From positions 25,192-89,191 of the forward strand of contig CAZUCF010000003.1 in NCBI GenBank assembly GCA_964619405.1: a DNA stretch of 64,000 nucleotides. Reading direction: 5' to 3'. Position numbers and translations under genes: made by a program. Below are positions 26,637-52,425 of this stretch, piece after piece; the stretch's first letter is position 1; every line of letters begins with the position of its first letter. The notes under the pieces are model-generated. The model was given only the letters and a program-made list of their open reading frames with translations. It did no database searches and had not been told where the DNA came from. The stretch is from an uncultured archaeon (lineage in GTDB: Archaea; Iainarchaeota; Iainarchaeia; Iainarchaeales; JAAZKV01).

Positions 26637-27190
26637 TGCGCGTTTAGTACGCGCTTAGGTTTGTTTGATGGATATCTTCTTGGTTTTTAACGTATTGTTT
26701 GGTTGTTTCTAAATCTACTGAACCAATACTTCGATAAAATTTTCCTCTGCTCCACATGTGTCCTTTTGTGTATCTATTTCTTAGATTTGGATGTTTTTTG
26801 AAATACTCGTATGATGATCTTCCTTTCAACAAATTTGTTGCTTTTGCTAAACTGATTTCTGGATTTACATGCACTACCATATGCACGTGATCTGGCATAA
26901 CTGCTAACTCCTCTATTCGCATTTTATGTTCTTTTGCAATTTGTTGCAAAATATTTTCCATATCTTCTTTACTACCCTCTTTTCTAAAAACGTTAAATCT
27001 ATATTTAGGACACCACTCTATATGATATACACATTGATAGATTGCGTGGGCTCCGCTCACTAAATCATTCATGTTTGAAAAACTCCTGTGCAGTTCCAAA
27101 GTGGCGCGGCAGCGCCACGCTGCGCAAAAAAGATACTACTTAGAAATAGATAATTAGCTCGCTTTCATCCGCACCTTAAAAGGTGCAGTT
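26606..27190 (-). mobile_element. IS200/IS605-family element carrying tnpA only (boundaries approximate)
   Basis: A Y1 HUH transposase gene is flanked by GC-rich subterminal hairpins in an AT-rich context: ccacaccc-taaa-gggtgtgg (26606..26625), gcgcg-tttagta-cgcgc (26638..26654), gtggcgc-ggca-gcgccac (27101..27118) and gcacc-ttaaaa-ggtgc (27171..27186). Confidence 0.7.
26644..27072 (-). CDS. tnpA: IS200/IS605-family Y1 transposase TnpA
   Basis: YHIEWCPKYR, HUH motif PDHVHMVVHV, C-terminal catalytic Tyr region (TKQYVKNQ). ATG at 27072 (TTG at 27099 is an alternative). Confidence 0.85.
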   Translation of the reverse strand: MNDLVSGAHAIYQCVYHIEWCPKYRFNVFRKEGSKEDMENILQQIAKEHKMRIEELAVMPDHVHMVVHVNPEISLAKATNLLKGRSSYEYFKKHPNLRNRYTKGHMWSRGKFYRSIGSVDLETTKQYVKNQEDIHQTNLSAY

Positions 27191-27257
27191 TTCTCGCTCG
27201 ACTAGATAATTAAAAATATTTGATAGAATTTTAAATTCTTCACACACAAAATACTTA

Positions 27258-28022
27258 ATGGAAAAAATTGCTATTGTTAGTTCCTTACAAGACGAAGCTG
27301 GAAAAAACATTGCTGAACAATTAAAAAAAATAGGAATACCAAAATGGGCTAATTATTATGATTTTGAAGAAGATTCTATTTTTCTACCATTAGAAAGAGT
27401 TAGGGAAGAAAATATTATTGTTCTTTCAAAACACCAAAGTGTCGCTGGGAAAAAAAGTTTAACAACCCACTCAATAGGAAATTTTTCTAAAGCAGAATTT
27501 GGTGGAAAAGAAAGAACTCTTTGTGGAGCACTAGCAAAAACAAATACAAATTTTTTAAGAGAATTAAATACAAAAAATAAATTCGTTAATGAAGAATTCT
27601 TGGTTTGTTATGAGGCAACACACCACGGGCCCTTTACAAACAAAAATGTTTCTTTTATTGAACTTGGTAGTTCCTTAACAGAGTGGAATAATGAAGAATA
27701 CGCAAAAATTATTGCTGAAACCGTTGTTAATGTTACTTTAAAAAAAAACAATGATAAAATAGTTATTGGTTTAGGTGGAGGACATTATGCACCAGACTTT
27801 AGCAAACTTGCTTTGAGAAAAAATTATTCTTTTGGACATATTTGCCCACAATACGCACTTGATTTTTTGGATGAAGATTTATTAGAACAAATGATTTCTA
27901 AAAGCAAGGCCGAGCAAATAGTTCTTGATTGGAAAGGATTAAAACAAAACAAGGAGAAAGTTGTTTCTTTGTGTGAAAAATCTGGTTTAGGGTTTGAGAG
28001 AGTTCAAAGATTATTGAAATGA
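27258..28022 (+). CDS. dtdA: archaeal D-aminoacyl-tRNA deacylase (DTD2)
   Basis: Roughly 250-aa archaeal DtdA architecture with the YEATHHGP motif and GLGGGHYAP. Confidence 0.8.
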   Translation: MEKIAIVSSLQDEAGKNIAEQLKKIGIPKWANYYDFEEDSIFLPLERVREENIIVLSKHQSVAGKKSLTTHSIGNFSKAEFGGKERTLCGALAKTNTNFLRELNTKNKFVNEEFLVCYEATHHGPFTNKNVSFIELGSSLTEWNNEEYAKIIAETVVNVTLKKNNDKIVIGLGGGHYAPDFSKLALRKNYSFGHICPQYALDFLDEDLLEQMISKSKAEQIVLDWKGLKQNKEKVVSLCEKSGLGFERVQRLLK

Positions 28023-28179
28023 AAAATATTAATTAATAATTCTAACTTATCTTTTTTCTTTTCTTATTTTCTAACTCAATCAAATAATTTTGATTTAAGA
28101 TCAGTCCAATACATTTTAGGAATTGTTACCCCAGTAAGAACGGTCCCTGTTTAAAAAAATAAAATTTATTAGAAAAAAA

Positions 28180-29421
28180 CTATTCTAAAAGCCACTTCCA
28201 AACTGGCTTAACAACAATCTTTACACCATCAACAACAAACTCTCTTTCTTGATCATAAGTCAAAAGCAACCCCCTCTTCAACTTATAACTCTTACAAGCC
28301 TCAACCAAACCACTAACTTCTCTTTTTTCATTCTCTTCATTCAAAGAATAACAAACCTGAATCGCCCTAACAATTTTCAAACCCTTTTTTATTACAAAAT
28401 CACACTCTTTCTTTTCTCTATGATAAAACACTTCATTATCCCTTGACTTCAAATCAATTAAAACAAGATTTTCTAATGTTGAACCATTATTTTCAGAAAA
28501 TTTAAATCCAACTTCTTTTAAAAAACCAATATCTGAAGAATAAAATTTTCTAGAATTCAAAATTTGTTTCTTATACGAATAATTAAATTTCCTCACTTCA
28601 ATAAAAAGAAAAGAATTCAAAAAATACCCCAAATATTTCTTAACAAGACTTTTAGAAGAAATTCCTGCCACTTCACCCATTTTTGAATAGGAAATATCTC
28701 TTCCAACCGCATTAATTAAATAAGTTGCAAGAATTTTAAGTTCCTCAACATTTTGTAAACTATACCTTGAAACAATATCCCTATAAAAAATATCAGAATA
28801 ATACTGTTTAATTAAAAAAGAATCATTTTCTTGTACTACAAGTGGAAAACCACCTAACAAAAAATAAGATTTAAAAGCACGTTTTATAGATGCTAATTTA
28901 CTTGTTGAACTAAAATCACTTGGAATATTTCTAAACCTAAGAAATTCCTTAAAAGAAAAAGGACTTAAATAAACCACAATATTTCTACCAGTTAATGCTG
29001 TTGCTATTTCTGAACTTAATAATTTAGCATTTGAACCGGTAACAAATATTTTAATGCCTTGTTCATACATTCTATTCAAAAATTTTTCCCAACCAGGAAT
29101 CACTTGAATTTCATCAAAATAAAAAACAAAATCCTTAGGATTTGATTCTAAAAAAAGCTCAAAAAGTGAATTAAAATCATCTGAGGAAAAATTAACAACC
29201 CGCTCATCATCAAAATTAAAATACAAAAAATCTTTTTTTAACTCTTTATTAATTAACTGTAATAAAGTAGATTTGCCACACCGCCTAATACCAGAAATAA
29301 TAACAATTTGTCTAGTCTTTAATAATTTAGATAAATCTAAATCTCTTTTAATTAATGGTTTATTTTTTAAGAAAAATTCTTTTTGATCAGCCATTATTAG
29401 TTTTAATTTTTCTTTATCCAC
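28180..29421 (-). CDS. AAA-family ATPase with C-terminal DUF4143-like domain
   Basis: Walker A GIRRCGKST, Walker B-like FYFDEIQ, about 410 aa. This is the AAA_14/DUF4143 architecture common in archaea. Confidence 0.75.
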   Translation of the reverse strand: MDKEKLKLIMADQKEFFLKNKPLIKRDLDLSKLLKTRQIVIISGIRRCGKSTLLQLINKELKKDFLYFNFDDERVVNFSSDDFNSLFELFLESNPKDFVFYFDEIQVIPGWEKFLNRMYEQGIKIFVTGSNAKLLSSEIATALTGRNIVVYLSPFSFKEFLRFRNIPSDFSSTSKLASIKRAFKSYFLLGGFPLVVQENDSFLIKQYYSDIFYRDIVSRYSLQNVEELKILATYLINAVGRDISYSKMGEVAGISSKSLVKKYLGYFLNSFLFIEVRKFNYSYKKQILNSRKFYSSDIGFLKEVGFKFSENNGSTLENLVLIDLKSRDNEVFYHREKKECDFVIKKGLKIVRAIQVCYSLNEENEKREVSGLVEACKSYKLKRGLLLTYDQEREFVVDGVKIVVKPVWKWLLE

Positions 29422-29694
29422 ACAAATAGTAAAGAACGATTGATATATAAATCTTTCTTTCTAAAAGAACGCTTTTAATACTATTAAATCATGAAAAAAT
29501 ACAAACCACCATTCTTCACTGTGCCAAACATTTAATGTTTTTTTATATTCAAAAACTGAAAGTTTTTGATTTTTAAAATCACCAGATTTTAATCCTTCAA
29601 AAACTAACAAGGCATCATTAGAATCTATAAAAACACCTTATCTTAAATAGTATAAAAACACTCCACGAGTGCCATACCAGTAAAACAATTAAAA

Positions 29695-30942
29695 TTAACC
29701 AATATTTTTTAAAAACTCTTTTTTTATCCTAAAACAATTCGCATGCTTAAAATGTCCAAAATAAGAAGCTTTAGTTGATTCGAATTGCTTTTTATCAAAA
29801 TCATCTAACTCTTTATTTTTTACTAATTCATTATAACTACTTATTTTTTTCTTGAAATTTGTTAAAACCCTTTTTCTCACATAAACAGAATAAGGTCTTA
29901 TAATATAACCAAGAAAATCAATCCCATTAGTTAGAGGTAAAAGAATTGATTCTTTTTTCAAATCAAGTAGCAAATTACTTTTAACAAAAAACAAAATCCT
30001 AAAAAAACAATCTAACAAAAAACTTTTGCTTTTTGAAAGCAAAATAAAATCATCAACATACCTAACATAATGTTTGATTCTCAATTTTTGTTTTATAAAA
30101 AAGTCAAGTTCGTGCAAATAAATATTGGCAAAAAACTGGCTGGAATAATTACCAATAGGCAAACCCTTGTTTTTTTCTGTATTGAATAAAGATTTGTGTT
30201 TCGGAATTTTTTCCCAATATTTTTCTCTTGATTTTTTAACAAAATTTTCTTGAGGACAAGAAAAAACAATTATTTTTAACAGAAAAATTAATTCTTCTTT
30301 TTGATTAAAAGAAAACAAATCAGAAGAGACAACTCTCTTTTTTATTAATTTAAAGAGTATTTTCTTATCAATACTCATAAAAAAATTCTGTACATCTAGT
30401 TGTAAAAAATAACCCCTTTTATAAGATTTCGAACTATTCTGATAGGATTGAGTAAACTTTTTTAAACACTTAACTGCTTTATGCGTTCCTTTCCCTTTTC
30501 TACAAGCATAACTATCAAAAATAAACCTTTTCTCATAAATCTTTTCTAATTCTTTTACCAAAATATGGTGGACTATTCTGTCTCTAAAATCAGCTGCAAA
30601 AATTTCTCTTGGTTTTGGTTTTAAAACAACAAAACAAACAGAACGCCTCGGAACATAAGTCTTATTGTTTAAAAAAGAATGTAAATCGAAAAGATTTTGC
30701 TCTAAGTTCTTTTCAAACTTTAAAGCATTACTATTATTTCTTTTTCCTTTCCTACATTCCTCGTAAGCTCTGTAAATGTTTTCTATCCCAAGGATTGTGT
30801 CTTTTTCCGAACGAACACACCTAACTCCGTTGTTGTTGTCGTTAGTCTTATTGTCGTTGTTGATATTACCATTGTTGGAATTCAAGTTGTAAGCGTTACT
30901 AGTATTACTAGGAACAGTAGAACTATTTTGTGGAATATTCAT
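29695..30942 (-). CDS. diversity-generating retroelement reverse transcriptase
   Basis: RT motifs LDVQNFFMSI, the DGR-specific GLPIGNYSSQFFANIYL, YVRYVDDFILL and IDFLGY. The first roughly 46 codons of the only ATG-initiated frame are the template repeat itself. Confidence 0.9.
   Translation of the reverse strand: MNIPQNSSTVPSNTSNAYNLNSNNGNINNDNKTNDNNNGVRCVRSEKDTILGIENIYRAYEECRKGKRNNSNALKFEKNLEQNLFDLHSFLNNKTYVPRRSVCFVVLKPKPREIFAADFRDRIVHHILVKELEKIYEKRFIFDSYACRKGKGTHKAVKCLKKFTQSYQNSSKSYKRGYFLQLDVQNFFMSIDKKILFKLIKKRVVSSDLFSFNQKEELIFLLKIIVFSCPQENFVKKSREKYWEKIPKHKSLFNTEKNKGLPIGNYSSQFFANIYLHELDFFIKQKLRIKHYVRYVDDFILLSKSKSFLLDCFFRILFFVKSNLLLDLKKESILLPLTNGIDFLGYIIRPYSVYVRKRVLTNFKKKISSYNELVKNKELDDFDKKQFESTKASYFGHFKHANCFRIKKEFLKNIG
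30804..30918 (-). repeat. DGR template repeat (TR)
   Basis: Aligns with 31599..31710. It is adenine-rich on the coding strand (AAC/AAT codons, translating to NSNNGNINNDNKTNDNNNGVRCVRSE), and the 3' 26 nt are identical to the VR. Confidence 0.85.
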
Positions 30943-31145
30943 AACTAAAAAAACCTCAGTCTTAATAGTGTCTTTTTCGCCTCACAAATTTTTTTTGGCA
31001 TATGGCTTTCCACATCAAAAAGCACCTAACCATTAAACACTCTTATCCCAAAGGATAAAATTCTGGGCACAATTCTGTTTGCTTTCTAACAACTTTGTTG
31101 TTAGTACCCACTAAATTAGTGAGAATAAATTACTAACACACTTTT

Positions 31146-31490
31146 TTATTGGACACTATTACTCCAACCATTTGCTTGCTTTGCTAAATCAACTATTAAA
31201 CCAGTTGAATAAATATAAGAATTAAAATTATGAAAAACCTTCGCTTCCTTACACAAACGAACAATCATTTTTAATTCCTCAACCAAAACAACCAACTCTC
31301 TTAAAACAATTTTTTTATCAACAAGAGAATTTGCTTTTGCAATACAAACACATATTTCTCTACTCTTATTTCTCAAATCACTTCCAAGAGTATATTTATT
31401 ATACCTAGAAAAATTCTTCACAATCTTTTCAAAATACAATGCTAAATCAAACGCTTTCTTATAAATCGACAAACTATCATATTGAGCCAT
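31146..31490 (-). CDS. avd: Avd-like accessory variability determinant (four-helix-bundle / 23S rRNA IVS protein family)
   Basis: 114 aa with a predicted helical-bundle sequence, MAQYDSLSIYKKAFDLALYFEKIVKNFSRYNKYTLGSDLRNKSREI, typical of the family. It lies between the target gene and the TR. Confidence 0.7.
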   Translation of the reverse strand: MAQYDSLSIYKKAFDLALYFEKIVKNFSRYNKYTLGSDLRNKSREICVCIAKANSLVDKKIVLRELVVLVEELKMIVRLCKEAKVFHNFNSYIYSTGLIVDLAKQANGWSNSVQ

Positions 31491-31515
31491 ACACAAACAC
31501 CACTTTAAAATTTTC

Positions 31516-31536
31516 GTGCCGCGCCCTTTCGGGCAC
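31516..31536 (-). other. GC-rich GNRA-tetraloop hairpin downstream of the VR
   Basis: The minus strand reads GTGCCCGAAAGGGCGCGGCAC. GCCC-GAAA-GGGC forms a 4-bp stem with a GAAA loop (an alternative is a 5-bp GTGCC/GGCAC stem). It sits 58-78 nt after the target stop codon. Confidence 0.4.
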
Positions 31537-31593
31537 TTTCTTTTTTCATCTCCCACTTAACCTCTAAACATAAAATTTTAAATCATCAAATTT

Positions 31594-32652
31594 TTAACTT
31601 TCCGAACGAACACACCTAACTCCGAACTTGTCGTCGCTAGTCTCATAGGCGGAGAGGATACCATCGAAGGAATTCAGGTAGTACGCGTAACCAGTAGAGC
31701 TAGGAACAGTGGTGCTTGACCAATAACCAAAACAAGTCGAATTCCAACCAGTTTGAGTAAAAACACTATTCAAATAACTCGAAGAAGGGTAACTCATGTC
31801 AGGCAAAGTTGCTAACTCAACAAAAGAAGGAACTCTCCAGTCACCAACACTAGAACCGTCAGTCAAACCATCAACACCATTAGCAAGAGTACTACAATAA
31901 CTCAAAGCACTCTCCCCACTCTCCCAAGTAACAGTCTTACAAGTACCCCCACTCATTCTATGATTCTTCTGCCAACACAAACCAGTATGATTATCTAAAA
32001 CAGTCCCACCACCACAACCATCAGCAGTATAACTTTTTGCAGTACCATCCTGCTCTTTATCATCCAAATCCCCAACATCATAACTAGTTGTTTGACCACT
32101 ATGAAGTTCAACCGCAAAAGGGCATTGATCAGCTAACATATTAGCATTAACAGTGTAAGGCGTGCAATCAAAAAAAACTTTTGAAGGATAACGCTCTGTT
32201 TTTGTCAAACCTTGACGAGTAACATAAGTAACAACCAAATCCTCTTGCAAAATCTTTCCTTCCTCACACACTGTTTCAGCATCAACTACAAAATACTTTG
32301 AACCACCCTGAGCCAAATCCTCTGAAAACAAAACCTCTTCACCACCAAGCTCAATCTTACTAATAGTCAAAATATTGCCAGTATTATTCAACAACTTAAC
32401 AGCAAACTCTCCATCACTATTAACCATTGACTCGGTAACACCAATACTAGAAGACATTACAGCCAACTCACTAGAATCGCTAGAAACACTAGAACCAGAA
32501 TCAAGAAAACCAACTAACAAACCAACAACCACAAGAGAAATAACAATAACAACACCAATTATTACAAGGTATTCTATGGTTCCTTGTCCTTTAGAATTTT
32601 TAACAAAACACTCACCAAAAAACATTTTAACTACACCCCTAAAAAAAACCAT
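31594..32652 (-). CDS. DGR target: type IV pilin-like (class III signal peptide) protein with C-terminal DUF1566/C-type-lectin-fold variable domain
   Basis: N-terminus KGQGTIEYLVIIGVVIVISLVVVGLL (archaeal prepilin-like). C-terminus GLCWQKN...DWRVPSFVELATL...YWSST...FGVRCVRSES (DUF1566-like), ending in the VR. Confidence 0.85.
   Translation of the reverse strand: MVFFRGVVKMFFGECFVKNSKGQGTIEYLVIIGVVIVISLVVVGLLVGFLDSGSSVSSDSSELAVMSSSIGVTESMVNSDGEFAVKLLNNTGNILTISKIELGGEEVLFSEDLAQGGSKYFVVDAETVCEEGKILQEDLVVTYVTRQGLTKTERYPSKVFFDCTPYTVNANMLADQCPFAVELHSGQTTSYDVGDLDDKEQDGTAKSYTADGCGGGTVLDNHTGLCWQKNHRMSGGTCKTVTWESGESALSYCSTLANGVDGLTDGSSVGDWRVPSFVELATLPDMSYPSSSYLNSVFTQTGWNSTCFGYWSSTTVPSSTGYAYYLNSFDGILSAYETSDDKFGVRCVRSES
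31599..31710 (-). repeat. DGR variable repeat (VR)
   Basis: 112 nt at the 3' end of the target CDS are homologous to the TR. Mismatches fall overwhelmingly at TR adenines. Confidence 0.85.
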
Positions 32653-32681
32653 TTTTATTAATAAAACAAAAGAACATTCAC

Positions 32682-32699
32682 ATATATATATATATATAT
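32682..32699. repeat. (AT)9 dinucleotide microsatellite
   Basis: atatatatatatatatat lies 30-47 nt upstream of the target gene's ATG at 32652. Confidence 0.9.
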
Positions 32700-32951
32700 T
32701 TGTTTGAAAAATTGGAAAAAAATTATTTTACCCAACACTTCACTTCAAAACCCATTCTTTTAATCACAATTCTCACTTTTTTTATAATTGCCCAAATCCT
32801 TCAAATCCAATAATAAAAAACCACTAATTTTTGGTTTTGATTTAAATGATTTCGCAAACAAAATTTATCCAACCACGAGTTTAATCAAAAAATAATTAGT
32901 ATAATTACAATTATATTATCAAACTGTTTTTTTATCAAAAAAATAATCAAA

Positions 32952-33908
32952 TCATTTTATTGATTGGATTTTTTTTATTATTTTTATAAGAAATGATAAA
33001 AGATTTTCTTTAAATACAACATAATCTTTTTTGTTCAACTCAATAAGCAACAATAATTCTATATCATCATCACTTTTTAAAAAATCTTGGGTTTTTTCTT
33101 GGAGTATTTTAATTGATCTTAAAAGATGCTTATCAACATATTGAATAAAACCCTCTGAACTTAAAACCTTCCTTTTAATTAAGCTAGTATTTATTTTATT
33201 TAAAGGACAAAGTTTGTCAAGAAGATACAAATCAAGAATATCCCTTTCTTTTAAAGTATTTCTAGTCAAAATCGCGCGTACCTTTTCAAGCATCACTTCA
33301 CGAATATCATATTGGAGAATACTTACCTTTACAAGATCATAATTTATTACATTGAGTCGCTTTTTTTCAACCCCCAAAAATTCAGCAAAATTAAACAAAC
33401 TATCTTCCTTGCATTTAAATACCAAATCTTCAATAAAATTAATCTCAATCTTAACCACTTCTTCATTTGAATTAATAAGAGAGGTATAATACAAATACAA
33501 TTTGTACACTGAGCGATCATTCAAAATTTTTACATATTTTGCATTTGTTCTACTAGTCTGAAAATCAAAACCGTTTTGATCAGCAATTTTTTTAAACGCT
33601 TCAATAAGAGGAATAATAGTTTTCTTTATCCTAGCTTCACGCGTTTTTCCTTTCAAAAGACGAATTTCTTTAGAATCCTTATGAGTAAAATCAAGATCCA
33701 CACTAATACGATGATAATTTAGATATTTTTTTGTAAGAAGCGTTCCACCTTTAAAAATAAGTCCTTGTAATTGAGTTTCTTGTGTTTTTAATTTTTGATA
33801 AGAACTAAGAACTTTAGAAAGCACATAATCTTTCTCAATAGATTCAAGAGAAATATTTTTCTTACTTTGAATTAATTTTCCATAAATAGCAAACTCTGTT
33901 TTATCCAT
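32952..33908 (-). CDS. AbiEii/AbiGii-family nucleotidyltransferase toxin (type IV TA)
   Basis: FKGGTLLTKKYLNYHRISVDLDF nucleotidyltransferase signature, about 318 aa. Overlaps the upstream partner gene by 8 nt. Confidence 0.75.
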   Translation of the reverse strand: MDKTEFAIYGKLIQSKKNISLESIEKDYVLSKVLSSYQKLKTQETQLQGLIFKGGTLLTKKYLNYHRISVDLDFTHKDSKEIRLLKGKTREARIKKTIIPLIEAFKKIADQNGFDFQTSRTNAKYVKILNDRSVYKLYLYYTSLINSNEEVVKIEINFIEDLVFKCKEDSLFNFAEFLGVEKKRLNVINYDLVKVSILQYDIREVMLEKVRAILTRNTLKERDILDLYLLDKLCPLNKINTSLIKRKVLSSEGFIQYVDKHLLRSIKILQEKTQDFLKSDDDIELLLLIELNKKDYVVFKENLLSFLIKIIKKIQSIK

Positions 33909-34521
33909 TTAATTCAACCTTTGCTTTTAAAAAGCTTGGAACTTTTAACAAATATTTTTTTAATTTTTGTTTATTTTTCTTATCTAGCAAATCTAAAGGA
34001 ACTTTCTTTTTATAATAAACAAAATCAATAATAGTTTTTTCAATGTCGGAATAATTCCAAACAATATTTTGAGAATTTTTTAACTCACAAACACCAAAAA
34101 AAAGATCTTTACGCATTTTTTTGAACAAAAACACTTGATTAAATATATTAAAAGAACCAGAAAATTTAGAATTAATAATAATTGTCCTGTTTATTGCTTG
34201 CCAAACAACTTTATTTTGCACAAGCGCACTTTCAAGTCCTAAATACCAATCAATATTTAATTCATTTAATATAATATACATCATTTCCAAAGGAGCCATT
34301 TTATTAAAATCTTTCTCAACTTCCTCAGCATCCCTTACATAATAATATTTTTTCCAAACATATAATATTTTTTTTGACTCACGAAGACTCCTAAACAAAG
34401 CAAAAGTAGAACAAGAATTAATCGTTTGATTTAAATGTGAACAAATTTCTTTTTTTGAAACAACTTTCTTTTTAAGACCATCAAGTGCTTGACGTGCAAG
34501 AAGATTATCATCAAGAGTCAT
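33901..34521 (-). CDS. putative AbiEi-like antitoxin/transcriptional regulator
   Basis: 206-aa ORF immediately upstream of, and translationally coupled to, the AbiEii-like gene. The call rests on position and size, not on a clear motif. Confidence 0.45.
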   Translation of the reverse strand: MTLDDNLLARQALDGLKKKVVSKKEICSHLNQTINSCSTFALFRSLRESKKILYVWKKYYYVRDAEEVEKDFNKMAPLEMMYIILNELNIDWYLGLESALVQNKVVWQAINRTIIINSKFSGSFNIFNQVFLFKKMRKDLFFGVCELKNSQNIVWNYSDIEKTIIDFVYYKKKVPLDLLDKKNKQKLKKYLLKVPSFLKAKVELNG

Positions 34522-34686: not shown

Positions 34687-36699
34687 TTAATACAAATTAT
34701 CAAATATTTTTTTGCCATCATTTTCTTCCAAGAATTTTTTTCTCTCATTCACATACTCTTGTATTTTTTTTGCTATGTCTGGAGTAACGTGTTTGAATCT
34801 TCCTTGTATCATTAAATATTCTTCAACAGGAATTTGCGTTGGCTTTGCACTTAATTTTAGAACACCTTCTTCAATCTCGTATATGGGTGAAACCCACGAG
34901 TCAAGCGCTTTTTTTGCAACGTCAATAGTACTACTTGGATCTATTTTCCACCCTGGAATACAAGGAACTAAAACATGTAAAAAACTCGGACCATTCACTT
35001 TCAAAGCTTTTTCTACTTTGCTTTTCAAATCAATTAAATTTGTTACACTAGCAGTTGCAACATAATTTAATCCGTGGGCTGCAACAATAAAAGGCAAGGG
35101 TTTTTTTGGTTGTTGTTTTCCTTTAATTATTTTTCCTGCTGGGCTAGTAGTAGTGCTTGCATAAGGGAATGTTGCTCCGCTTCTTTGTATTCCCGTGTTA
35201 TGTACTACTATTCCGTTTGCTATAAAATTGTGTTCTCCTTCTACTCGCAAGTCAAGTGTTGGCTCTACTCCCTTTTTTTCTATTGAAATAATTTTTTTTG
35301 TTTCAAAGTACTCGTTCCCAAATAAATAATTTCTTTGTTTGTTTTGGTTAGCATATTTTAGTAATGCTCCTTGTTTTGAACTAAAACAAACATAACCATA
35401 TGTTGATTCTTTTAGCAATGCTCTTTTTACTACGAGAGTTCCTTCTTTTTTTGTTTGTGAATGAATTTTTCCAACTCGCACATCCATTGTTTGAAGTAAT
35501 AGTCTTAATGTTCTTAAAAGTTCAAAACTTGCTGAAACATACCTATTACTTTTTCCTATTTTGTATCCGTCAGAAAGCATTAATCCTTCAACAAAAGCTT
35601 CTTTTTCTTTTAATGGCAGAGTAAAAACCCATTGTGGAATTATTTTGTTTTTTGCGCCTTTTCCAAAGCCAAGGGAATCAAAAAACTTTGCTACGTTTAT
35701 TGAATTAATATGTAATTCATTATCATTTTCGCTTAAACAATTACTCCACAACAAGTTTTCTATTAATTGTTTTGCTTCTTTTCTTCCTTTAATTTTTTTT
35801 GGGAGAGCAAAACCAACTTCGGCCTTGTTTATTCTCGTCCAACCATCTCCAACATATATTCCAAGTAATTTCATTAATTCAATGGAAGAATTTTCTGGCA
35901 AATTAACTTCATTTATTTTGTTAACTTTATAATCACCTTTTTTTGATAAAACTATTTTAGAAAAATTAAATGGTTTTCCTTCTAAACCTTTTTTTAGTGA
36001 AACTATTTCGTCCCCAATTTTTAATTCTTCAACCATTTTCCAAACGAAATTGTTTTGCCCTTGTTTTCCATTTCTTTGTAGTACTAAGAAGGGATGATTT
36101 CCTGTTGCTTTTATTGTGTTTGAATTAGTATTAATTTCAAAAACTCTTTTTTTACCATTATCAAATACTCCAACACATTTTTTTAGAACTAGTTCATTTG
36201 TTTTTTGACCGAAAGCATAAACTTCGTCCCCAACATTTATTTCAGTAATTTTTTTAAGTCCGTCTTTTGTCATTATTAATGCGTCTAAAGCCAAGCAATT
36301 CATGTAAGCTTCATTGTCAGTTACAATATACAAAATTTTGTGGCCTCTTTCTACTGCTCCTGAAAGTGCTCCAAATCCAATGTCAAACATTGCTCCGTCT
36401 CCGCCCATCGCAATAACGTTTGTTTCTTTATCTCCTTTCGTATTTAATGCTGCCCTGATTCCTGATGCTACTGCTGCTGCGTTTTCAAATGCGCAGTGCA
36501 CGAATGGAATTTCCCAACTTGTTTCTGGATATGGTGTTGAAACTACTTCCATGCAACCAGTTGCTTGTGCTACAATTGTTTTTCTTCCAGCTGCTTTTAG
36601 TATGTGTCTTAGGGCTAGTGCTTCTCCGCACCCAGCGCATGCCCTGTGCCCGCTTGCAAAAAGTTCTTCTTCATTAATTCCCATTACAGCCATAATCAT
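34687..36699 (-). CDS. porB: pyruvate/2-oxoacid:ferredoxin oxidoreductase beta subunit, interrupted by an intein
   Basis: Exteins carry [16 protein letters not shown] and DNEAYMN|TGIQRSG (ThDP site). The mature size would be 303 aa. Confidence 0.85.
35197..36297 (-). mobile_element. intein (367 aa) with LAGLIDADG homing-endonuclease domain in PorB
   Basis: Starts with Cys ([13 protein letters not shown]), ends ANGIVVHN, followed by +1 Thr. LAGLIDADG motifs are [10 protein letters not shown] and [11 protein letters not shown]. Confidence 0.85.
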
Positions 36700-39395: not shown

Positions 39396-40208
39396 TTATA
39401 ACTTGATTTTTGTACTTTTTATTTCTTTTCCGAGTAAAGAATTTTCTAGATTCTTTTCAACAAACAAAGAAAATATTTCAGCGGGAACCCCGCTAAGTGT
39501 TTCAGCTAATTTTTCTAATTTTCCTTTCATTCCACCAGTAACATCAACTGAATTAGATTCTCCACATTGATTTAGAACTTCTTCTAAATTTTCTTTATTT
39601 ATTTCTTCAATTAAAATAGCACTTAAATCAATTTTGGGGTCTGCTGTAAAAATTCCATCAACATCTGTTCCCATCAAAACTTTTTTTGGAGCCAAATGTT
39701 TTGCTGTTTGCGCAATTACTTGGTCGCCCGACATTACACTCCACCCAAAACTTTTATCAGGAACCATTGTCCCAGTAGTTATTGGAATTATTCCTTCTTC
39801 TAAACATTTTTTGTATTCTTCTAAATTAAACGAGATTACTTTTCGTTCGTTTTGAACACAAATATCTGTTCCTAAAATTAGTTTTGATTTTATTCCAAAT
39901 TTTTCAAGTGCTTTAATTGTTTCATTTCCAACATAAGCACAATCTTTTTTTGTTTTTTCTACACCTTCTTCTTGTTCTCGCGTTTCTATTTTTCCATTTA
40001 AATTATAATTTACAACATTAGTGTGTCCAAATGGCCCAACACCACAAACAAGAATTATTTTTAAATCAGGATTTTTATCAAGTGCATTTTTTATTTCTTT
40101 GGCTGAGCGATTTAGAATTTCATAATTCATTTCAAATTTATTATCAGCTTTTTTTGTGATTGAAGAACCACCAAGTTTTAGAATTACTAAGTTATCCAAA
40201 ATAATCAC
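39396..40208 (-). CDS. ipk: isopentenyl phosphate kinase
   Basis: Amino-acid-kinase fold, VILKLGGSSITKK, GVGPFGH. Lies in the mevalonate cluster. Confidence 0.8.
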   Translation of the reverse strand: MIILDNLVILKLGGSSITKKADNKFEMNYEILNRSAKEIKNALDKNPDLKIILVCGVGPFGHTNVVNYNLNGKIETREQEEGVEKTKKDCAYVGNETIKALEKFGIKSKLILGTDICVQNERKVISFNLEEYKKCLEEGIIPITTGTMVPDKSFGWSVMSGDQVIAQTAKHLAPKKVLMGTDVDGIFTADPKIDLSAILIEEINKENLEEVLNQCGESNSVDVTGGMKGKLEKLAETLSGVPAEIFSLFVEKNLENSLLGKEIKSTKIKL

Positions 40209-40597
40209 TCAAATTCAATTGTCCCTTCTTCACCATTTACTTTTGCTTTCTTTACATCTTTTAATTTTTCAATATCAATTTTATCAATGCATGAAATTTC
40301 AGAAATTATTGCTCCAACAGCAACTATTGTTTCACATTCTTTATTCACTAAAGCTAACGGAGCTGTTCCTTGTTTTTTCATTCGATATAGTGCATAACTT
40401 CCAACAGTTGAACCTTTCCCTTGAGGAAAAACTAAAACTTTCCCAGTAATACATACCCCTTCAAGCGGGTGACCGCTTTCTGCAACTATTCCAGTATCTG
40501 GATTCACTCCTCCAAAAAAACTAATTCCTTCTGTTGTATAAAGTACTTCGCCTTCTGCTTTTCCTTTTGCAATTGTTCTTCCTTTTAGTGTACTCAT
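40205..40597 (-). CDS. aconitase X swivel-domain protein (DUF126): phosphomevalonate dehydratase small subunit
   Basis: About 130 aa, GKAEGEVL...SFFGGVNP...FPQGKGSTVG. ATGA overlap with the large subunit. Confidence 0.75.
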   Translation of the reverse strand: MSTLKGRTIAKGKAEGEVLYTTEGISFFGGVNPDTGIVAESGHPLEGVCITGKVLVFPQGKGSTVGSYALYRMKKQGTAPLALVNKECETIVAVGAIISEISCIDKIDIEKLKDVKKAKVNGEEGTIEFE

Positions 40598-41778
40598 TCT
40601 ACCACTTCTCCACATGCTTCTTTTACTAAGTTTTCAATTGACATTATTTTTACTTTAAAATTATTTTTTGCTGCTCCATAATAACATCCTTTTGCTGAAT
40701 CTGTTGCTAAACACTTAAAGCGTCCTTTTATTGGTGCTACTACACAGCAGGTATCACACGCAAATTTTGCTCCAGCTTCTTCTATTATTTTTACATAACC
40801 AATTTCTTCTGCTTGTTTTTTTATTGGTCTAGCAGTTGTAACCCAAAATTCTTTTACAACTTTTTTTCCTTCTAAGAGTTTTGCTAATTTTTCAAGTTCT
40901 TTTAAACTACAATGTGGACAACCAACACTCACAAAATCAACTTCACAATTATCATTTAAACTCGCAAGTGCTTTATCAATTTCTTCTTTTGTAACAGTAA
41001 TTGACTCGTCTGGAACTTGCGTTTTGTTTGGAGTTAAACCCTCCATGTGAAATATTGCTGCTCCACCATATGTTGCAATACTCGCTCCAAATGATTTTAA
41101 TTCTTCTACACTTGCCTCTTTTATTCCAACAATATAAGCTGGTTTGTTTTTTATTTTTTCTCCAATTACTTTTCCAAGTGCCCCAAAATATTCTGTTCCT
41201 TTGATTTTTGTTTCTACACTTACTTTTACTTTTGCAGCTCTGTTTTCATCTAAATGCATTCCATAAAGAGGAGTTTTTCCTGTTAATGCAGAAGCTAAAG
41301 CACTTGGCCCGCCTTCCCTGTTTGTGTATGCTCCAAGAACTGAGTTACAATATGCAACAGCACTACTTTCACTCCAAGCAACATGTTGACCTTCTTTAGG
41401 TTTATTTCCAATAAAATATGGTGTGCAAGTACAAGTTGTTTTTACACCCATTTGTGCAAATGAATCAATTACTGCTTTTTGTTTTTCTGCGAATTCTTTT
41501 GTCATTCCAAGAGCTTCCCAATTTTCAAGGTCCATTCCTGCTGGATTAAGCGTTGTTAAAACTTTTACGCGTCCATCTTTTGCAAGTTCTGCTAAGTATT
41601 CTAGACCAGCGTCCCCTAAATTATCATAACTTACTCCTGCAATTTGTACGCTTGTAACATCAACTAGTTTTTCTGCACCATAAATTTCTCCAAGGGCAAT
41701 TAATATTTCCATTGATTTTTTTACAGCATTTCCTTCTTTTCCATCAGCCATTTCTTGTTCTTGTTTTGTTAATAACAT
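40594..41778 (-). CDS. aconitase X catalytic-domain protein (DUF521): phosphomevalonate dehydratase large subunit
   Basis: 394 aa, a DUF521-like sequence with Cys ligand candidates (TCTCTPY, GCPHCS, ACDTCCVV). Mevalonate cluster context. Confidence 0.75.
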   Translation of the reverse strand: MLLTKQEQEMADGKEGNAVKKSMEILIALGEIYGAEKLVDVTSVQIAGVSYDNLGDAGLEYLAELAKDGRVKVLTTLNPAGMDLENWEALGMTKEFAEKQKAVIDSFAQMGVKTTCTCTPYFIGNKPKEGQHVAWSESSAVAYCNSVLGAYTNREGGPSALASALTGKTPLYGMHLDENRAAKVKVSVETKIKGTEYFGALGKVIGEKIKNKPAYIVGIKEASVEELKSFGASIATYGGAAIFHMEGLTPNKTQVPDESITVTKEEIDKALASLNDNCEVDFVSVGCPHCSLKELEKLAKLLEGKKVVKEFWVTTARPIKKQAEEIGYVKIIEEAGAKFACDTCCVVAPIKGRFKCLATDSAKGCYYGAAKNNFKVKIMSIENLVKEACGEVVE

Positions 41779-41851
41779 TTTTTCACCAAAAAAATTTACA
41801 ATAAATTTATTACAATTATTTTAAATTAATTTTATAAACCACTTTAAAATC

Positions 41852-43138
41852 TTATAAATAATCTTTAATATTATATTCTGGAAATTTTTGTTTTGTCATT
41901 TCACAAACCCTATTAAGCGGCATTGTTAAATCAAATCCTGCTTTACAAGTGAGTCTTGTATTTGGATCACCACTTGGATCAAGTGAAGAACCTTTTTCTC
42001 CAGGAAAAGTATACAAATCTTTATCTGCTTGAAATCTTGTAGCCATTGCCCATTCTACTTCTAGTGGATTATAGATATTTATATCTTTATCAACTACAAA
42101 AAAATGTTTTCCACTAGTGTGCCCTTTCATTGCAGCAAGAATCGCATTTTTTCCTTCTTCATCACTTTTTTTATTTATTTTTATTAAAACATGTAACCAA
42201 CTTGTTCCTCCAGGATTAACTGAAACATCAACTATATCTATTCCTGATTTTTTTACTTCTTGGAAAACAGTTGGTTCTCTTGGCATCCCCATTAATATTT
42301 TATGTTCAAACCCACCAGGAAGTAATGCATGGTAAATATAATTTGGTCTTGTGTAAATTTTTTCAACTGTAAATGTTGGTTCTTCTCTTATTATGTCTGG
42401 TGTTTCGGTTAGATCAACAAATGGACCTTCACTATGTTTTTGATTTAGACTTAAAGTTCCTTCCATTATTATTTCTGCATCTGCTGGAAGAATTGCATCA
42501 AAAGTTTTTGCTTTTATTACTTTGATTGGTTTTAGAGTATTTGCAATTGTTAATTCATTAACTCCTATTGGAGGAGCCATTGCAGCAGCTAAAAGTGTTT
42601 CTCCTCCGCAACCAATACAATATGCAGCTTTTACTTCCCCATTATTTTTTTTAAGAATTTCCATTGTGTTTCTTTCAAGAATTCTAAGAACGATTTTATT
42701 TTTATCAAATACCATCCCTCTATGAAAGCATACATTTTGTCCTAGTTCAGAATCTTTTACTATTATTATTCCTGAAGAAACATATGGCCCACCATCTGCC
42801 TTTGTATGTGTTAAAATTGGAATTTTTTCAAGATCTACTTCTTGATCTTGGTGGTCTGTATTTGTTACAACTTCTGGTTCGCTTGGTTTTTTTAGAGCAT
42901 TAATCATTTTTGGAACAAGATCTTTTACTTTACACTTAAGATATTTTGCTACTTTTTCTTTTGAGGCAAAAACATTTACCGCTACGCGGTTTTCATTTTC
43001 TTTTACGTTTTCAAAAAGAATCATTTCGTCTTTTGTAGAATGAACTATTCCACTTAACTCTAAATTTTTTGATACTTCTTTTGTTATTCTTATTTCGGCA
43101 TTATTTTCAACAAATTCTCTCAGGGTCATTGTTTCCAC
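41852..43138 (-). CDS. UbiD-family decarboxylase (anhydromevalonate phosphate decarboxylase candidate)
   Basis: 428-aa UbiD-like protein, adjacent to and overlapping ubiX and next to the AcnX genes. Confidence 0.7.
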   Translation of the reverse strand: METMTLREFVENNAEIRITKEVSKNLELSGIVHSTKDEMILFENVKENENRVAVNVFASKEKVAKYLKCKVKDLVPKMINALKKPSEPEVVTNTDHQDQEVDLEKIPILTHTKADGGPYVSSGIIIVKDSELGQNVCFHRGMVFDKNKIVLRILERNTMEILKKNNGEVKAAYCIGCGGETLLAAAMAPPIGVNELTIANTLKPIKVIKAKTFDAILPADAEIIMEGTLSLNQKHSEGPFVDLTETPDIIREEPTFTVEKIYTRPNYIYHALLPGGFEHKILMGMPREPTVFQEVKKSGIDIVDVSVNPGGTSWLHVLIKINKKSDEEGKNAILAAMKGHTSGKHFFVVDKDINIYNPLEVEWAMATRFQADKDLYTFPGEKGSSLDPSGDPNTRLTCKAGFDLTMPLNRVCEMTKQKFPEYNIKDYL

Positions 43139-43683
43139 CTGTTATAATTATTATTTTTTATCCCTAATAAGTCTAACGCTTTTCCAATAATAAAATCTTC
43201 TAAATCACTTATCTGTTTTGGTTTTCCATAAAAACCTGGACTAAGAGGAAAAATTATCCCACCATATTTTGATATTGTCGCTAATTGTTCTAAGCATGGC
43301 CCGCTCAAAGGAGTTTCTCTTAAACCAATTATTAATGGTTTTTTGTATCGGAGCATTATGTCAGCGCACCTTGTAATGAGGGTTGATGTGTGAGCATTAG
43401 CTATTTCTGAAATTGTTTTTACTGATGCTGGAATTATTATCATTCCATCTATTAGAAAACTTGAAGAAGATATTTTTGCAGCCATATCTTTGTTTGAATA
43501 ATTTTTGGAAGCTAATTTTTTTAATTCTAAAATTTTTTTGTTTGTTTCTTGTTCAAAAACTTTTTCTGCCCACTCGCTAATAATTAAGTGTGTTTCAATT
43601 TTTTGTTTTTTTAATTCTTTTAGTAAAGCAAGTGCATAGTTTGTTCCACTCGCACCAGTTACTCCGACAATAATTTTTTGCAT
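43126..43683 (-). CDS. ubiX: flavin prenyltransferase UbiX
   Basis: IIVGVTGASG, PASVKT. About 185 aa. Confidence 0.85.
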   Translation of the reverse strand: MQKIIVGVTGASGTNYALALLKELKKQKIETHLIISEWAEKVFEQETNKKILELKKLASKNYSNKDMAAKISSSSFLIDGMIIIPASVKTISEIANAHTSTLITRCADIMLRYKKPLIIGLRETPLSGPCLEQLATISKYGGIIFPLSPGFYGKPKQISDLEDFIIGKALDLLGIKNNNYNRWKQ

Positions 43684-43717
43684 AAAAATAACCAAAACTA
43701 AAATTAATTAAAAAAAT

Positions 43718-44653
43718 TTAACTTATTTTTGCTTTTATTAGAGAATAATTTTTTGCTTGTAGTAATTCAAAGATTTTGTTTTGCTGTTGTTCTGTTTCAC
43801 ACAATATTATTACATTGCCCCCACAACCAGCACCAGTAACTTTTGCTCCCAAGCAATTCTCAAATGTAGCTGTTTTAATTATTTCTTCTGCTTCTTTGCA
43901 AGAAACACTTATTTTTCTTAGTAATTCTTGGTTCTGGTTCATTAGGTTACCAATTTCTTTTAGGCCACCAAATTTTAATTCTTGTTTTGCTTTTACAACA
44001 ATTTTTTTGTAATCTGAAAAAATTTTTTCAAATTCTTTTTTGTTTTCTTCTTTTTTCTTTGCAACCATTTCAACTATTTGTTTTGTACTCTCTTTTTTTA
44101 CTCCTGTGTCAACAACTAACAAGTATAATGTTTTAGCACACTTCAATAATTTAATATTGTTTTTCCCACCACCCTTGTTTTTTTCGAAAAGGATTGTTGT
44201 CCCATATGTTGCACAAGTATTATCTATTCCTGATGGGGTACCATGAGAAACTTTCTCGCATTCAAATGCTAAATCATTTATTTCTTCTTCTTTTAAATCC
44301 AAATTTAAGTGTTGTGATGTTGCGCGAGCCATTGCTACTGCTAGTGAAGCTGACAAACCCATTCCACCGCCAGGAACAGCGTTACCAGAAAAAGTAATTT
44401 TTATTTTGTTTAAACCATATTTTTCTATTATTGGTTTGAATATTCTGCTTTTAATGTGCTCTGGATTCTTTTTAATGTCAATTTTTTCTTTAAAGAATAC
44501 TGGGTCGTCTATAATAATCGTATCATCGTTTATCGGAGCAATTTTTATTTCAACGAACCTGTCTATTCCTGATGCTATTCCTGGTAAACCATAGACAACA
44601 AAGTGTTCTCCGAACAAAATTATTTTTGAATAACCTTTTCCTATTGCAACCAT
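43718..44653 (-). CDS. mvk: mevalonate kinase
   Basis: GHMP kinase motifs KIILFGEHFVVYG, VPGGGMGLSASLAVA, KVTGAGCGG. Confidence 0.85.
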   Translation of the reverse strand: MVAIGKGYSKIILFGEHFVVYGLPGIASGIDRFVEIKIAPINDDTIIIDDPVFFKEKIDIKKNPEHIKSRIFKPIIEKYGLNKIKITFSGNAVPGGGMGLSASLAVAMARATSQHLNLDLKEEEINDLAFECEKVSHGTPSGIDNTCATYGTTILFEKNKGGGKNNIKLLKCAKTLYLLVVDTGVKKESTKQIVEMVAKKKEENKKEFEKIFSDYKKIVVKAKQELKFGGLKEIGNLMNQNQELLRKISVSCKEAEEIIKTATFENCLGAKVTGAGCGGNVIILCETEQQQNKIFELLQAKNYSLIKAKIS

Positions 44654-45157: not shown

Positions 45158-45161
45158 TAAT

Positions 45162-50997: not shown

Positions 50998-52425
50998 TTA
51001 TGTGCACCCAGTGATAATACCACTTTCAATTGAGACTTGACAAGTAGTAGAACAATCACTTGCTGTACAAAGCCAATAACTACTAGTATCATCTATGCCT
51101 TGGTTTCCACTTGATGACTTAAAGCTAGTGCCAGTTTGTATATCCCCACTCGCATAAATCCCACCAGTAGCATTTACAGCATAAGTATTATCAGTTAATT
51201 GAACACTATTAGCACCATCACTAAAATTACTAGTGCCTGAAACATTTAATGCGTATGTTCCATCATGCATAACAACATTAGTTGTTCCACTATTAAATTG
51301 ACTCATTCCAGTAGCATTTACAGCATAAGTACCATCAGCCAAAGTAATATTATTACTTGAACCATCTTCTAAATAACCAGCATAACCATTAACACCCAAA
51401 CTAGCTTTATAACTACTATTATAAAATATTCCTGCTGCCGAACCATCAGAAAGTATTGCTATATTACTATTTGGGTCCACACTATAAATGTTTTGTGTTC
51501 CATCTAATATTTTTAAGGTAGAAAACCCATCAGTAAACAAACCATACTCTGTCCCATTATATAATTCAACAGCATCACTACCCACATTCAAATAACTTGT
51601 GTACAAACCATATTCTGTGTAAATTCCGTCAGCCGGGTCATCAAACCAATCAAAAACGGTTTCATCGTTTGTACTAACTAATCGTGTTGCCATAATTCTG
51701 TGTGTTTTTATTGGATTTTGGGTTTCCCAAAAATAACTCTCCCCTCCAAAATCTCCTTTTAAAAATGAAACATCCCCACCAATACTAATTTCTCCAAACA
51801 TCCCAGTTCCTGTTGTAGTTAAACCATTAGTACCTAAATTAACATCAGTAGTAGCACCAGTATAAGTAACATAACCACTCAAATCGGGTTGTGTGCTTAA
51901 ACACTCTTGCACGTTATTTGCTTCAATACAAATGAGTGAGTTTGATGCCCCTTCAAAAAAAAGTGTTCCTGAAGTAATACTACTTTTTTTGCCAGGCATT
52001 AAGTCAAAGCCACCACTATCAAAAATTGATTCAGAATTTCCTACTTGGTAATGAAAGAAAACATCGCTGTAAGAGCATTCTCCTTCACAATCCCCTATGT
52101 TTGGAATAAAAACTGTTTTCTTTTCTTCTGGTAAAAAAATCATTGGTTCATCCACTAAAACTTGTTTTGAACCAATAGAATAACCAGCAAAATAAATTGG
52201 GTGTAATAAATTATTCTTCATAACAATTAATGCGTCACCATTATTATCAACAATAGCCTCAAGAATTGCTATGGAACCAACTCCCCACTCTTGTTTGTTT
52301 TGCATTGTAGAAACTGGTCCAAAAAAACCAAAAAAATTTGTGATTAAAGCAGTAGCAATTAAAGCAATTGTTATAACCGCACCAATTATTGCTAAGTACT
52401 CTATTGTTGATTGTGCTCTTGACAT
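50998..52425 (-). CDS. type IV pilin-like (class III signal peptide) secreted protein, 475 aa
   Basis: N-terminus MSRAQSTIEYLAIIGAVITIALIATALI is paralogous to the DGR target N-terminus. The C-terminal region is Gly/Thr/Ser/Asn-rich and repetitive. Confidence 0.6.
   Translation of the reverse strand: MSRAQSTIEYLAIIGAVITIALIATALITNFFGFFGPVSTMQNKQEWGVGSIAILEAIVDNNGDALIVMKNNLLHPIYFAGYSIGSKQVLVDEPMIFLPEEKKTVFIPNIGDCEGECSYSDVFFHYQVGNSESIFDSGGFDLMPGKKSSITSGTLFFEGASNSLICIEANNVQECLSTQPDLSGYVTYTGATTDVNLGTNGLTTTGTGMFGEISIGGDVSFLKGDFGGESYFWETQNPIKTHRIMATRLVSTNDETVFDWFDDPADGIYTEYGLYTSYLNVGSDAVELYNGTEYGLFTDGFSTLKILDGTQNIYSVDPNSNIAILSDGSAAGIFYNSSYKASLGVNGYAGYLEDGSSNNITLADGTYAVNATGMSQFNSGTTNVVMHDGTYALNVSGTSNFSDGANSVQLTDNTYAVNATGGIYASGDIQTGTSFKSSSGNQGIDDTSSYWLCTASDCSTTCQVSIESGIITGCT

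Follow-up and report, generated by a model that had tools for sequence, protein, structure and literature searches.

A diversity-generating retroelement in a DPANN archaeon targets a type IV pilin-like protein with a C-type-lectin-like variable domain

Organization of the locus

We analyzed a 64,000-nucleotide stretch of DNA (contig CAZUCF010000003.1 of assembly GCA_964619405.1, positions 25,192 to 89,191; hereafter the window, to which all unqualified coordinates refer) from an uncultured archaeon of the Iainarchaeota/Diapherotrites, a DPANN lineage. Its ribosomal protein S3Ae, for which the best named match is Candidatus 'ainarchaeum' (76% identity), assigns it to this group. The chromosome carries a diversity-generating retroelement (DGR) composed of a target gene that ends in a variable repeat (VR), a hairpin, the accessory gene avd, a template repeat (TR) and a reverse transcriptase (RT) gene, in that order and all on the minus strand. 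A first-pass annotation, made from the sequence alone, had proposed that this DGR diversifies a type IV pilin-like protein with a DUF1566/C-type-lectin variable domain, and the analysis described below bears out that core claim. The elements of the cassette are as follows.

31594..32652, minus strand: DGR target gene, an open reading frame (ORF) of 352 amino acids (aa) with Pfam matches to Lcl_C and Class_IIIsignal
31599..31710, minus strand: VR, the last 37 codons of the target
31599..31623, minus strand: 25-nt 3' end of the VR, GGAGTTAGGTGTGTTCGTTCGGAAA, resembling an initiation of mutagenic homing (IMH) sequence; by direct reading it is the same in the TR (30804-30828), adenines included
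31521..31536, minus strand: GC-rich hairpin GTGCCC-GAAA-GGGCGC between the VR and avd, from DNA folding
31146..31490, minus strand: avd (accessory variability determinant), 114 aa from the ATG at 31490, in an ORF open to 31556; Pfam bAvd
30804..30918, minus strand: TR, with many AAY codons, in frame within the 5' end of the RT ORF
29695..30942, minus strand: DGR RT; Pfam RVT_1, E = 9e-16

The target likely begins at its second Met codon (32625), which gives a 343-aa protein that is 100% identical to a 343-aa NCBI protein (P0001) encoded on a 97-kb contig.

The retroelement is complete

The TR (30804-30918) and VR (31599-31710) align with a blastn E value of 1e-20 and are the sole such pair in the window; neither a second VR nor a remote target was found in its 64 kb. 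Substitutions between them fall at TR adenines in 19 of 23 cases (binomial p = 1.7e-5), leaving 4 non-A differences, and the alignment contains one 3-nt gap. The RT contains IGNYSSQ at aa 263 and YVDD at aa 295, and an IGxxxSQ-type motif is a mark of the DGR RT clade. Its best sequence match in the PDB, 8ub7_A (a 328-aa 'Reverse transcriptase', which we take to be the Bordetella phage DGR RT), scored E = 1.8e-35, far ahead of retron RTs and of group II intron RTs (~1e-9). Among related loci fetched for comparison (designated by L numbers), the RTs of the DGR cassettes, where readable, are 57-73% identical to that of the window.

The avd product matches Pfam bAvd with E = 8.6e-9, its 36.3 bits lying below the cut-off of 40. 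It is 64-67% identical to the genes in the same position at L001, L004 and L005, and up to 89% identical to those of metagenome cassettes. The hairpin lies in a 111-nt region with a DNA folding z-score of -2.5; the same hairpin is also kept downstream of the VR in L004 and L005, and a related one is present in L001. A role for such hairpins in homing comes from the BPP-1 DGR, and by analogy that of the window may act likewise. Since the TR/VR pair, the IMH-like end, the hairpin, avd and the RT are all present, the DGR is real and complete.

We also noted that the TR sits in the frame of the VR inside the 5' end of the RT ORF (30804-30942), a placement common to five sister loci (L001, L004, L005, L098 and L108); at L095 and L114 the overlap between TR and RT ORF is in a different frame. 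Because the in-frame start codons of the window RT occur only upstream of or within the TR, the RT would open with an Asn-rich copy of the C-terminus of the target (MN..NSNNGNINNDNKTNDNNNGVRCVRSE).

The target joins a complete pilin module to a lectin-like head

The 352-aa target ORF contains KGQGTIEYLVIIGVVIVISLVVVGLLV, CWQKN, DWRVPSFVELATL, YWSST and GVRCVRSES, and is divided as follows.

32587..32625, minus strand: short, positively charged leader MFFGECFVKNSKG, with a predicted cut after G22 (K21-G22 / Q23); PF04021 match at aa 20-42
32503..32586, minus strand: mature alpha-1 helix QGTIEYLVIIGVVIVISLVVVGLLVGFL, aa 23-50, the hydrophobic pilin core helix, helical in the AlphaFold2 (AF2) model
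32446..32502, minus strand: Ser-rich linker, aa 51-69; AF2 predicted local distance difference test (pLDDT) below 50 at model residues 39-58
32164..32445, minus strand: beta-sandwich pilin globular domain, aa 70-163 (~95 aa), AF2 pLDDT ~87, with a conserved Cys pair
31597..32043, minus strand: DUF1566/Lcl_C C-type-lectin-like head, aa 204-352; Pfam PF07603

The first-pass annotation described the N-terminus as prepilin-type, and the leader, the Pfam match and the fold all agree with this. The Class_IIIsignal family (PF04021) matches aa 20-42 with E = 1e-4, and the short, charged K21-G22 / Q23-G-T-I-E27 leader runs into a 28-aa hydrophobic stretch. Archaeal class III signal peptides likewise have [KR][GA] at -2/-1 and a hydrophobic stretch of at least 20 aa. 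Class III (DUF361/PF04021) signal peptides carry a QXSXEXXXL-type motif with Q at position +1 and are processed by EppA (PMC2910488). With Q at +1 and E at +5 the target leader fits that motif (PMC2910488), and a prepilin peptidase would be expected to cleave it at G22/Q23.

Conservation within the family points in the same direction. The motif [KR][AG]-QGTIEYLVII is near-invariant, together with the hydrophobic helix, in ~60 full-length homologs; PF04021 matches 35 of 43 family members; and the Q, G, T, E and L of the helix are invariant in 43 homologs. No other part of the protein has a column entropy as low as that of the helix (0.73 bits), and conservation this strong argues for a filament-core helix rather than a mere membrane anchor. 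Residues C120 and C154 of the beta-sandwich are likewise invariant in the family, and the conservation of Cys pairs would fit an extracytoplasmic location.

An AF2 model of the target, built on a 43-sequence family alignment, consists of a long N-terminal helix, a disordered Ser-rich linker followed by a well-predicted beta-sandwich, and a C-terminal domain. When the whole model was compared with the PDB using Foldseek, the best match was the Pyrobaculum arsenaticum pilus (6w8u, E = 8.4e-5); next came 8fk7 from P. calidifontis (E = 7e-4) and 8q30, the AAP filament of Sulfolobus (E = 2e-3), ahead of FlaF/FlaG and archaellins. It is the N-terminal half, helix and beta-sandwich together, that lies nearest to archaeal type IV pilins. 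At the sequence level no match of the target to known pilin globular domains was found, and NCBIfam returned no match for the target, for a 475-aa paralog described below or for the short pilin. As modeled, the target is a complete pilin module (helix plus beta-sandwich) onto which a head is grafted, making three modules. The initial description of a signal peptide fused to a C-type-lectin domain was therefore right about the two ends, but overlooked the complete pilin module, including a beta-sandwich of ~95 aa, that intervenes.

That the C-terminus adopts a DUF1566-type C-type-lectin fold ending in the VR was also correctly anticipated. PF07603 matches aa 216-349 with E = 8.6e-20 (71.6 bits, against a cut-off of 34.9) and is found in all 43 family members. 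Modeled alone with AF2, the C-terminal 168 aa reached a pLDDT of 87.8 and a predicted template modeling (pTM) score of 0.83. The top Foldseek match of the head in the PDB was the C-terminal domain (CTD) of Legionella Lcl (8q4e; E = 1.6e-3, template modeling (TM) score 0.58), and further matches with weaker E values and TM scores of 0.4-0.6 included snake-venom C-type-lectin-like domains (snaclecs), those of mannose receptors, and invasin. Searching the PDB with the single head sequence by phmmer yielded only noise and a family profile was required, which recovered 8q4e at E = 3e-8. In BFVD the head matched phage DUF1566 proteins and herpesvirus C-type lectins. The first-pass annotation had suggested comparison with C-type-lectin variable proteins such as Mtd and TvpA; the C-type-lectin-like part of that expectation stands, in the form of the Lcl type, but no likeness to Mtd, TvpA or AvpA was detectable either in the top 50 Foldseek PDB matches or in the profile search of the PDB.

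Lcl-CTD, a DUF1566 domain, has a C-type-lectin-like fold (PMC11162425). In the profile alignment, the Lcl residues that bind sulfated glycans (glycosaminoglycans) fall within the VR: K380, K385 and K391 lie opposite AAC codons of the TR, and S371, A372 and S390 opposite ACT and AGT codons. Across the 43-member family, positions derived from A-containing TR codons have an entropy of 2.39 bits versus 1.01 bits for other positions (Mann-Whitney p = 4e-4). By homology to Lcl, the VR residues may lie on an exposed ligand-binding face.

The family and its linkage to DGRs

At least 43 full-length proteins combine the pilin module with an Lcl_C head, and they make up a conserved family in DPANN archaea. 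Relatives of the pilin module number 157 in GTDB species genomes, often with many per genome, and metagenomes contribute 243 more. The loci bearing pilin-Lcl_C genes differ in what accompanies the target.

Avd-TR-RT cassette alongside, or the part of it reached by the contig: window, L001, L004, L005, L095, L097, L098, L107, L108, L111, L114
Shortened avd only, without RT: L088, L089, L096
No RT in the neighboring 6-10 kb, or in as much of it as the contig covers: L008, L086, L087 (protein P0012, same as L090), L093, L101, L115, L130

At L091 an avd-RT pair lies ~3 kb away from the target. Roughly half of the evaluable pilin-Lcl_C genes are DGR-linked, and because members without a cassette occur, the scaffold-plus-lectin architecture exists independently of the DGR. 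The three loci with a shortened avd look like decayed DGR cassettes. Their avd remnants (L088 2419-2598, L096 1459-1638 and L089 1170-1238) comprise the first 23-60 codons and are 83-92% identical to the avd of the window.

Pilin-module paralogs in pilus-assembly operons

A second protein with the pilin-like N-terminus is encoded in the window, as the first-pass annotation had pointed out.

50998..52425, minus strand: paralogous modular pilin-like protein of 475 aa, starting MSRAQSTIEYLAIIGAVITIALIA, with a different, unannotated head and without a VR

It aligns to aa 20-113 of the target (31% identity, E = 1e-11), has no match in Pfam or NCBIfam, and lies between IDI2 and a Fer4_20 oxidoreductase plus a hydroxymethylglutaryl-coenzyme A (HMG-CoA) reductase. 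At L086 the same slot (10001-10981) holds a pilin-Lcl_C gene. Since one syntenic slot thus holds different heads, unknown repeats in the window and Lcl_C in L086, head swapping on a fixed scaffold is suggested.

At five other loci, genes for pilin-module proteins adjoin genes for the type IV pilus assembly families T2SSE and/or T2SSF.

L075: a 162-aa stand-alone pilin with no head; T2SSE and T2SSF adjoin
L063: one pilin-module gene running off the contig, its head not read; T2SSE adjoins
L146: two pilin-module proteins of ~525 aa with GLUG/M26_N heads; T2SSE and T2SSF adjoin
L143: pilin-module proteins of 1092 and 583 aa with DUF2341 plus Big_7 heads; T2SSE adjoins
L156: three pilin-module proteins of 551-597 aa with unannotated heads; T2SSE adjoins

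These operon paralogs are the strongest evidence, albeit indirect, that large 'QGTIEYL' proteins may be substrates of a pilus machine. No prepilin peptidase was seen in any fetched locus. We also noted a small exosortase/archaeosortase-like membrane protein in the window (4512-5000; PF09721, E = 6e-6, just above the cut-off), and a weaker match of the same type (E = 1e-3) at L156 5091-5693, among modular pilin genes and the T2SSE ATPase.

Proposed display of the target and alternative explanations

Taken together, these findings lead us to favor, with moderate confidence, a model in which the DGR-diversified target is a modular type IV pilin-like adhesin displayed on a pilus-like filament. In this model the TR RNA would be reverse-transcribed by the Avd-RT complex with misincorporation specific to adenines, and the resulting cDNA would replace the final 112 nt of the target, guided by the 25-nt IMH-like end and the downstream hairpin. 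Approximately 25 codons would be re-randomized, 14 of them AAY, and the 37 adenines involved would permit ~10^22 DNA variants; the randomized codons would correspond to C-terminal strands and loops of the DUF1566/C-type-lectin-like head. The target would be made with its class III leader, inserted via Sec, cut between G22 and Q23 by a prepilin peptidase, and held by its hydrophobic alpha-1 helix and beta-sandwich pilin domain. A T2SSE/T2SSF-type machine would most likely load it into a type IV pilus-like filament, where its bulk makes a minor, tip or decorating subunit the probable role. The variable lectin head would face outward, binding changing ligands whose nature we infer rather than observe. 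A role for the target in attachment to a host is a matter of conjecture, and strict host dependence or obligate episymbiosis should not be assumed, since the window contains a mevalonate-pathway cluster and a cytidine diphosphate (CDP)-archaeol synthase.

Several observations weigh against this model. With respect to the pilin assignment, the PF04021 score of the target (22.6 bits) is just under the gathering cut-off of 23.7, the full-length AF2 model is of moderate quality (pLDDT 75), and the Foldseek TM scores to pilins are low (0.40, target-normalized) with high root-mean-square deviations. With respect to assembly, the window contains no prepilin peptidase, T2SSE or T2SSF gene, as judged by Pfam searches of ~45 ORFs and by regular expressions for the T2SSE Walker A and the peptidase GxGD motifs. 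With respect to diversification, several family members lack a nearby RT or retain only a shortened avd; all 4 non-A differences of the window VR are at third codon positions, 3 of the 4 being synonymous; and the VR lacks one codon that both its own TR and the family consensus have.

The first alternative is that the class III leader and helix serve only to anchor the protein or to form a small bindosome-like oligomer; the head would then be displayed on the cell without any filament and act as a surface receptor. Class III signal peptides do occur on non-filament proteins, namely the sugar-binding proteins of the Sulfolobus bindosome and proteases, and these documented non-pilus cases count against our model as well (PMC2910488). 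The ~300 aa that follow the helix are likewise bulky for a major pilin, and in the DGR-linked members examined (window, L001, L004 and L005) no assembly genes adjoin the target. However, conservation within the protein peaks in the helix, with Q+1 and E+5 invariant, which would be unusual in a simple anchor; a pilin-type beta-sandwich follows the helix; and paralogs of similarly large size are found inside T2SSE/T2SSF operons. We consider display without a filament less likely than the filament model, yet a serious rival to it.

A second alternative, that the DGR is a fossil or dormant, accepts past diversification of the target but holds that homing has ended and that the VR is now ordinary coding sequence. 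The non-A differences and the one-codon deletion mean that the present VR allele is not a pristine product of the present TR: the allele would seem to have drifted after the last homing event, or the cDNA bore a deletion. Decay is also evident among relatives, in the shortened avd genes without RT at L088, L089 and L096. Yet in the window the RT, avd, TR, IMH-like end and hairpin are intact and the RT catalytic motifs are in place, and the sister cassettes show almost clean A-only patterns. Target-avd-TR-RT cassettes with clean A-biased TR/VR pairs are present at L001, L004 and L005, the differences amounting to 19 at adenines and 1 other at L001, and the same numbers at L005. An inactive DGR strikes us as unlikely, and retrohoming may be continuing. 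All 4 of the non-A differences raise the GC content of the VR, and a 3-nt gap also occurs at L001 (8869-8986).

Assemblies of the same population bear on this question to a small degree. In five Logan assemblies (contigs L080-L085) the flanking genes are 98.7-100% identical to those of the window, and none of these contigs crosses positions 31368-31765, which cover the VR, the hairpin and the 5' end of avd. A heterogeneous VR would fit this gap. We nevertheless rejected the assembly breaks as proof of VR hypervariability; contigs also end at 31992, 32650, 32666 and 32912, and because they break elsewhere too, the gap is weak evidence of VR heterogeneity.

Finally, a merely coincidental resemblance to pilins, with the N-terminus acting as a plain Sec signal peptide or anchor, could draw on the sub-threshold Class_IIIsignal score and the absence of an NCBIfam match, but is highly improbable given a leader motif that is invariant across the family, PF04021 matches in 35 of 43 members, closest folds that are archaeal pilins, and pilin-module paralogs tied to T2SSE/T2SSF genes at five loci.

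The model of a pilin-like adhesin displayed on a filament can be extended, tentatively, to other pilin-module proteins of Iainarchaeota and other DPANN archaea. The 'QGTIEYL' module may be a general plug-in scaffold on which interchangeable heads (Lcl_C, GLUG, DUF2341/Big_7, laminin-G-like and unknown repeats) are presented on one type IV pilus, the DGR reprogramming the head in about half of the lectin-headed members. Such a structure would be the first hypervariable, retroelement-programmed adhesive pilus in archaea, and the in-frame TR may additionally provide the RT with an Asn-rich N-terminal copy of the C-terminus of the target. We regard this broader proposal as possible, and hold it with less confidence than the model for the target itself.

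Relationship to known systems

Streptococcus sanguinis PilB and PilC are modular type IV pilins with grafted vWA and lectin modules; they are bacterial and are not known to be hypermutated. As in the target, a complete pilin module bears a functional binding module at its C-terminal end. The type IV pili of Pyrobaculum and Sulfolobus (6w8u, 8fk7 and 8q30) and PF04021 proteins share with the target the short [KR]G/Q leader, E+5, and a hydrophobic helix plus beta-sandwich. In contrast to these known archaeal pilins, which are ~130-180 aa with no extra head, the target adds a connector and lectin head of ~190 aa. Legionella Lcl-CTD (8q4e, PMC11162425) is the closest solved structure to the head, and its glycan-binding residues align with the VR segment; unlike the target, Lcl has a collagen-like stalk, is trimeric, lacks disulfides and is not a DGR target.

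Among DGR systems, that of Legionella pneumophila (LdtA; Wu 2017, PMC5758913) has an Avd, a TR and an RT, and places the VR at the C-terminal end of a DUF1566-type ('CLec2') domain, as observed here. The LdtA variable domain is located on the cell surface (PMC5758913), whereas surface display of our target is predicted; moreover, LdtA is a bacterial outer-membrane lipoprotein, while the scaffold in our DPANN archaeon is made up of an archaeal class III leader followed by the pilin helix and beta-sandwich. In the Type V pilus tip adhesins of Bacteroides (bioRxiv 10.1101/2024.11.15.621889) a DGR similarly varies the ligand-binding end of a pilus-associated adhesin. Type V pili are built in Bacteroidota from lipoprotein precursors by strand exchange, in contrast to the type IV pilin-type module and presumed filament incorporation proposed here. 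The AvpA protein of Nanoarchaeota (Handa 2016, PMC5006420) is a further example of a DGR target with a C-type-lectin fold in small-genome archaea, although it has no detectable sequence or fold-rank similarity to the head of our target.

A connection between pilins and DGRs has been raised previously. According to Yan 2019 (PMC6642488), DUF1566 targets that have putative transmembrane segments were found by Paul 2017 to bear 'putative pilin structures'. In a survey from 2024, a GspG-type pilin is one of the rare domains that carry a VR (PMC11661182). In the literature that we searched, which did not extend to Paul 2017, we found no link of DGRs to class III leaders, to archaeal type IV pilin beta-sandwich modules or to T2SSE/T2SSF operons. 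Pilin-like DUF1566 targets in DPANN and candidate phyla radiation (CPR) organisms, and DGR-varied pilus adhesins in Bacteroides, are already in the literature. Because the general idea has been published, the value of our findings lies in refinement and testability rather than surprise.

DGRs are thought to help small-genome, partner-dependent microbes track changing surfaces, but little has been documented about the way in which DPANN cells present the variable proteins. The family described here offers a testable model of display, in which a complete archaeal type IV pilin module carries a DGR-diversified lectin head. Its intact cassettes, shortened-avd cassettes and cassette-free members also constitute a natural series for the gain and loss of targets.

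Base composition and other features of the window

The target is more GC-rich than the RT gene (0.389 versus 0.255), as noticed in the first-pass annotation, and has the highest GC content of 41 genes (mean 0.30 +/- 0.04). Its excess is mainly at codon positions 1 and 2, reflecting amino-acid composition; its GC content at position 2 (0.44) equals that of the 475-aa paralog. The adenine-depleted VR, with a GC content at third positions (GC3) of 0.54, adds to that of the target. The GC3 of the RT (0.204) is like that of the rest of the genome. Because the RT is host-like in GC3 and the excess of the target is compositional, with a contribution from the VR, the contrast is no evidence of foreign origin, and we rejected horizontal transfer as the cause of the high GC content of the target.

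The DGR lies within a small accessory island (26644-34521). Upstream of the target are an AbiEii toxin gene (32952-33908) and a gene for a 206-aa partner (33901-34521); downstream of the RT are an AAA_14/DUF4143 ATPase gene (28180-29421) and, close by, an IS200-type Y1 transposase gene (26644-27099). A viral origin was considered and rejected: a scan of IMG/VR with the family profile yielded no relatives, and the AbiEii, AAA_14/DUF4143 ATPase and IS200 transposase neighbors are not phage genes.

Elsewhere in the window, a 1216-aa ORF at 15144-18794 had no match in Pfam or NCBIfam. A mevalonate-pathway cluster spans 39396-54670, as read from translations and from synteny with the Pfam-annotated L086. 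It includes genes for HMG-CoA synthase, HMG-CoA reductase, thiolase, mevalonate kinase, IDI2, an isopentenyl-phosphate-kinase-like protein, and UbiD/UbiX-like and aconitase-X-like proteins. Together with the CDP-archaeol synthase gene, found by Pfam scan at 5007-5537, this suggests that the DPANN host may make its own lipids.

Three genes of the window are intein-interrupted (34687-36699, 54762-57239 and 57409-60513). The thiamine pyrophosphate (TPP) subunit of a pyruvate:ferredoxin oxidoreductase contains an Intein_splicing match. The intein of the geranylgeranyl diphosphate synthase is deduced from size only, the protein having 825 aa versus 361 aa for the polyprenyl synthase of L086. The third, a DHH/RecJ-like protein, has 1034 aa with Intein_splicing and LAGLIDADG matches, versus 481 aa in L086.

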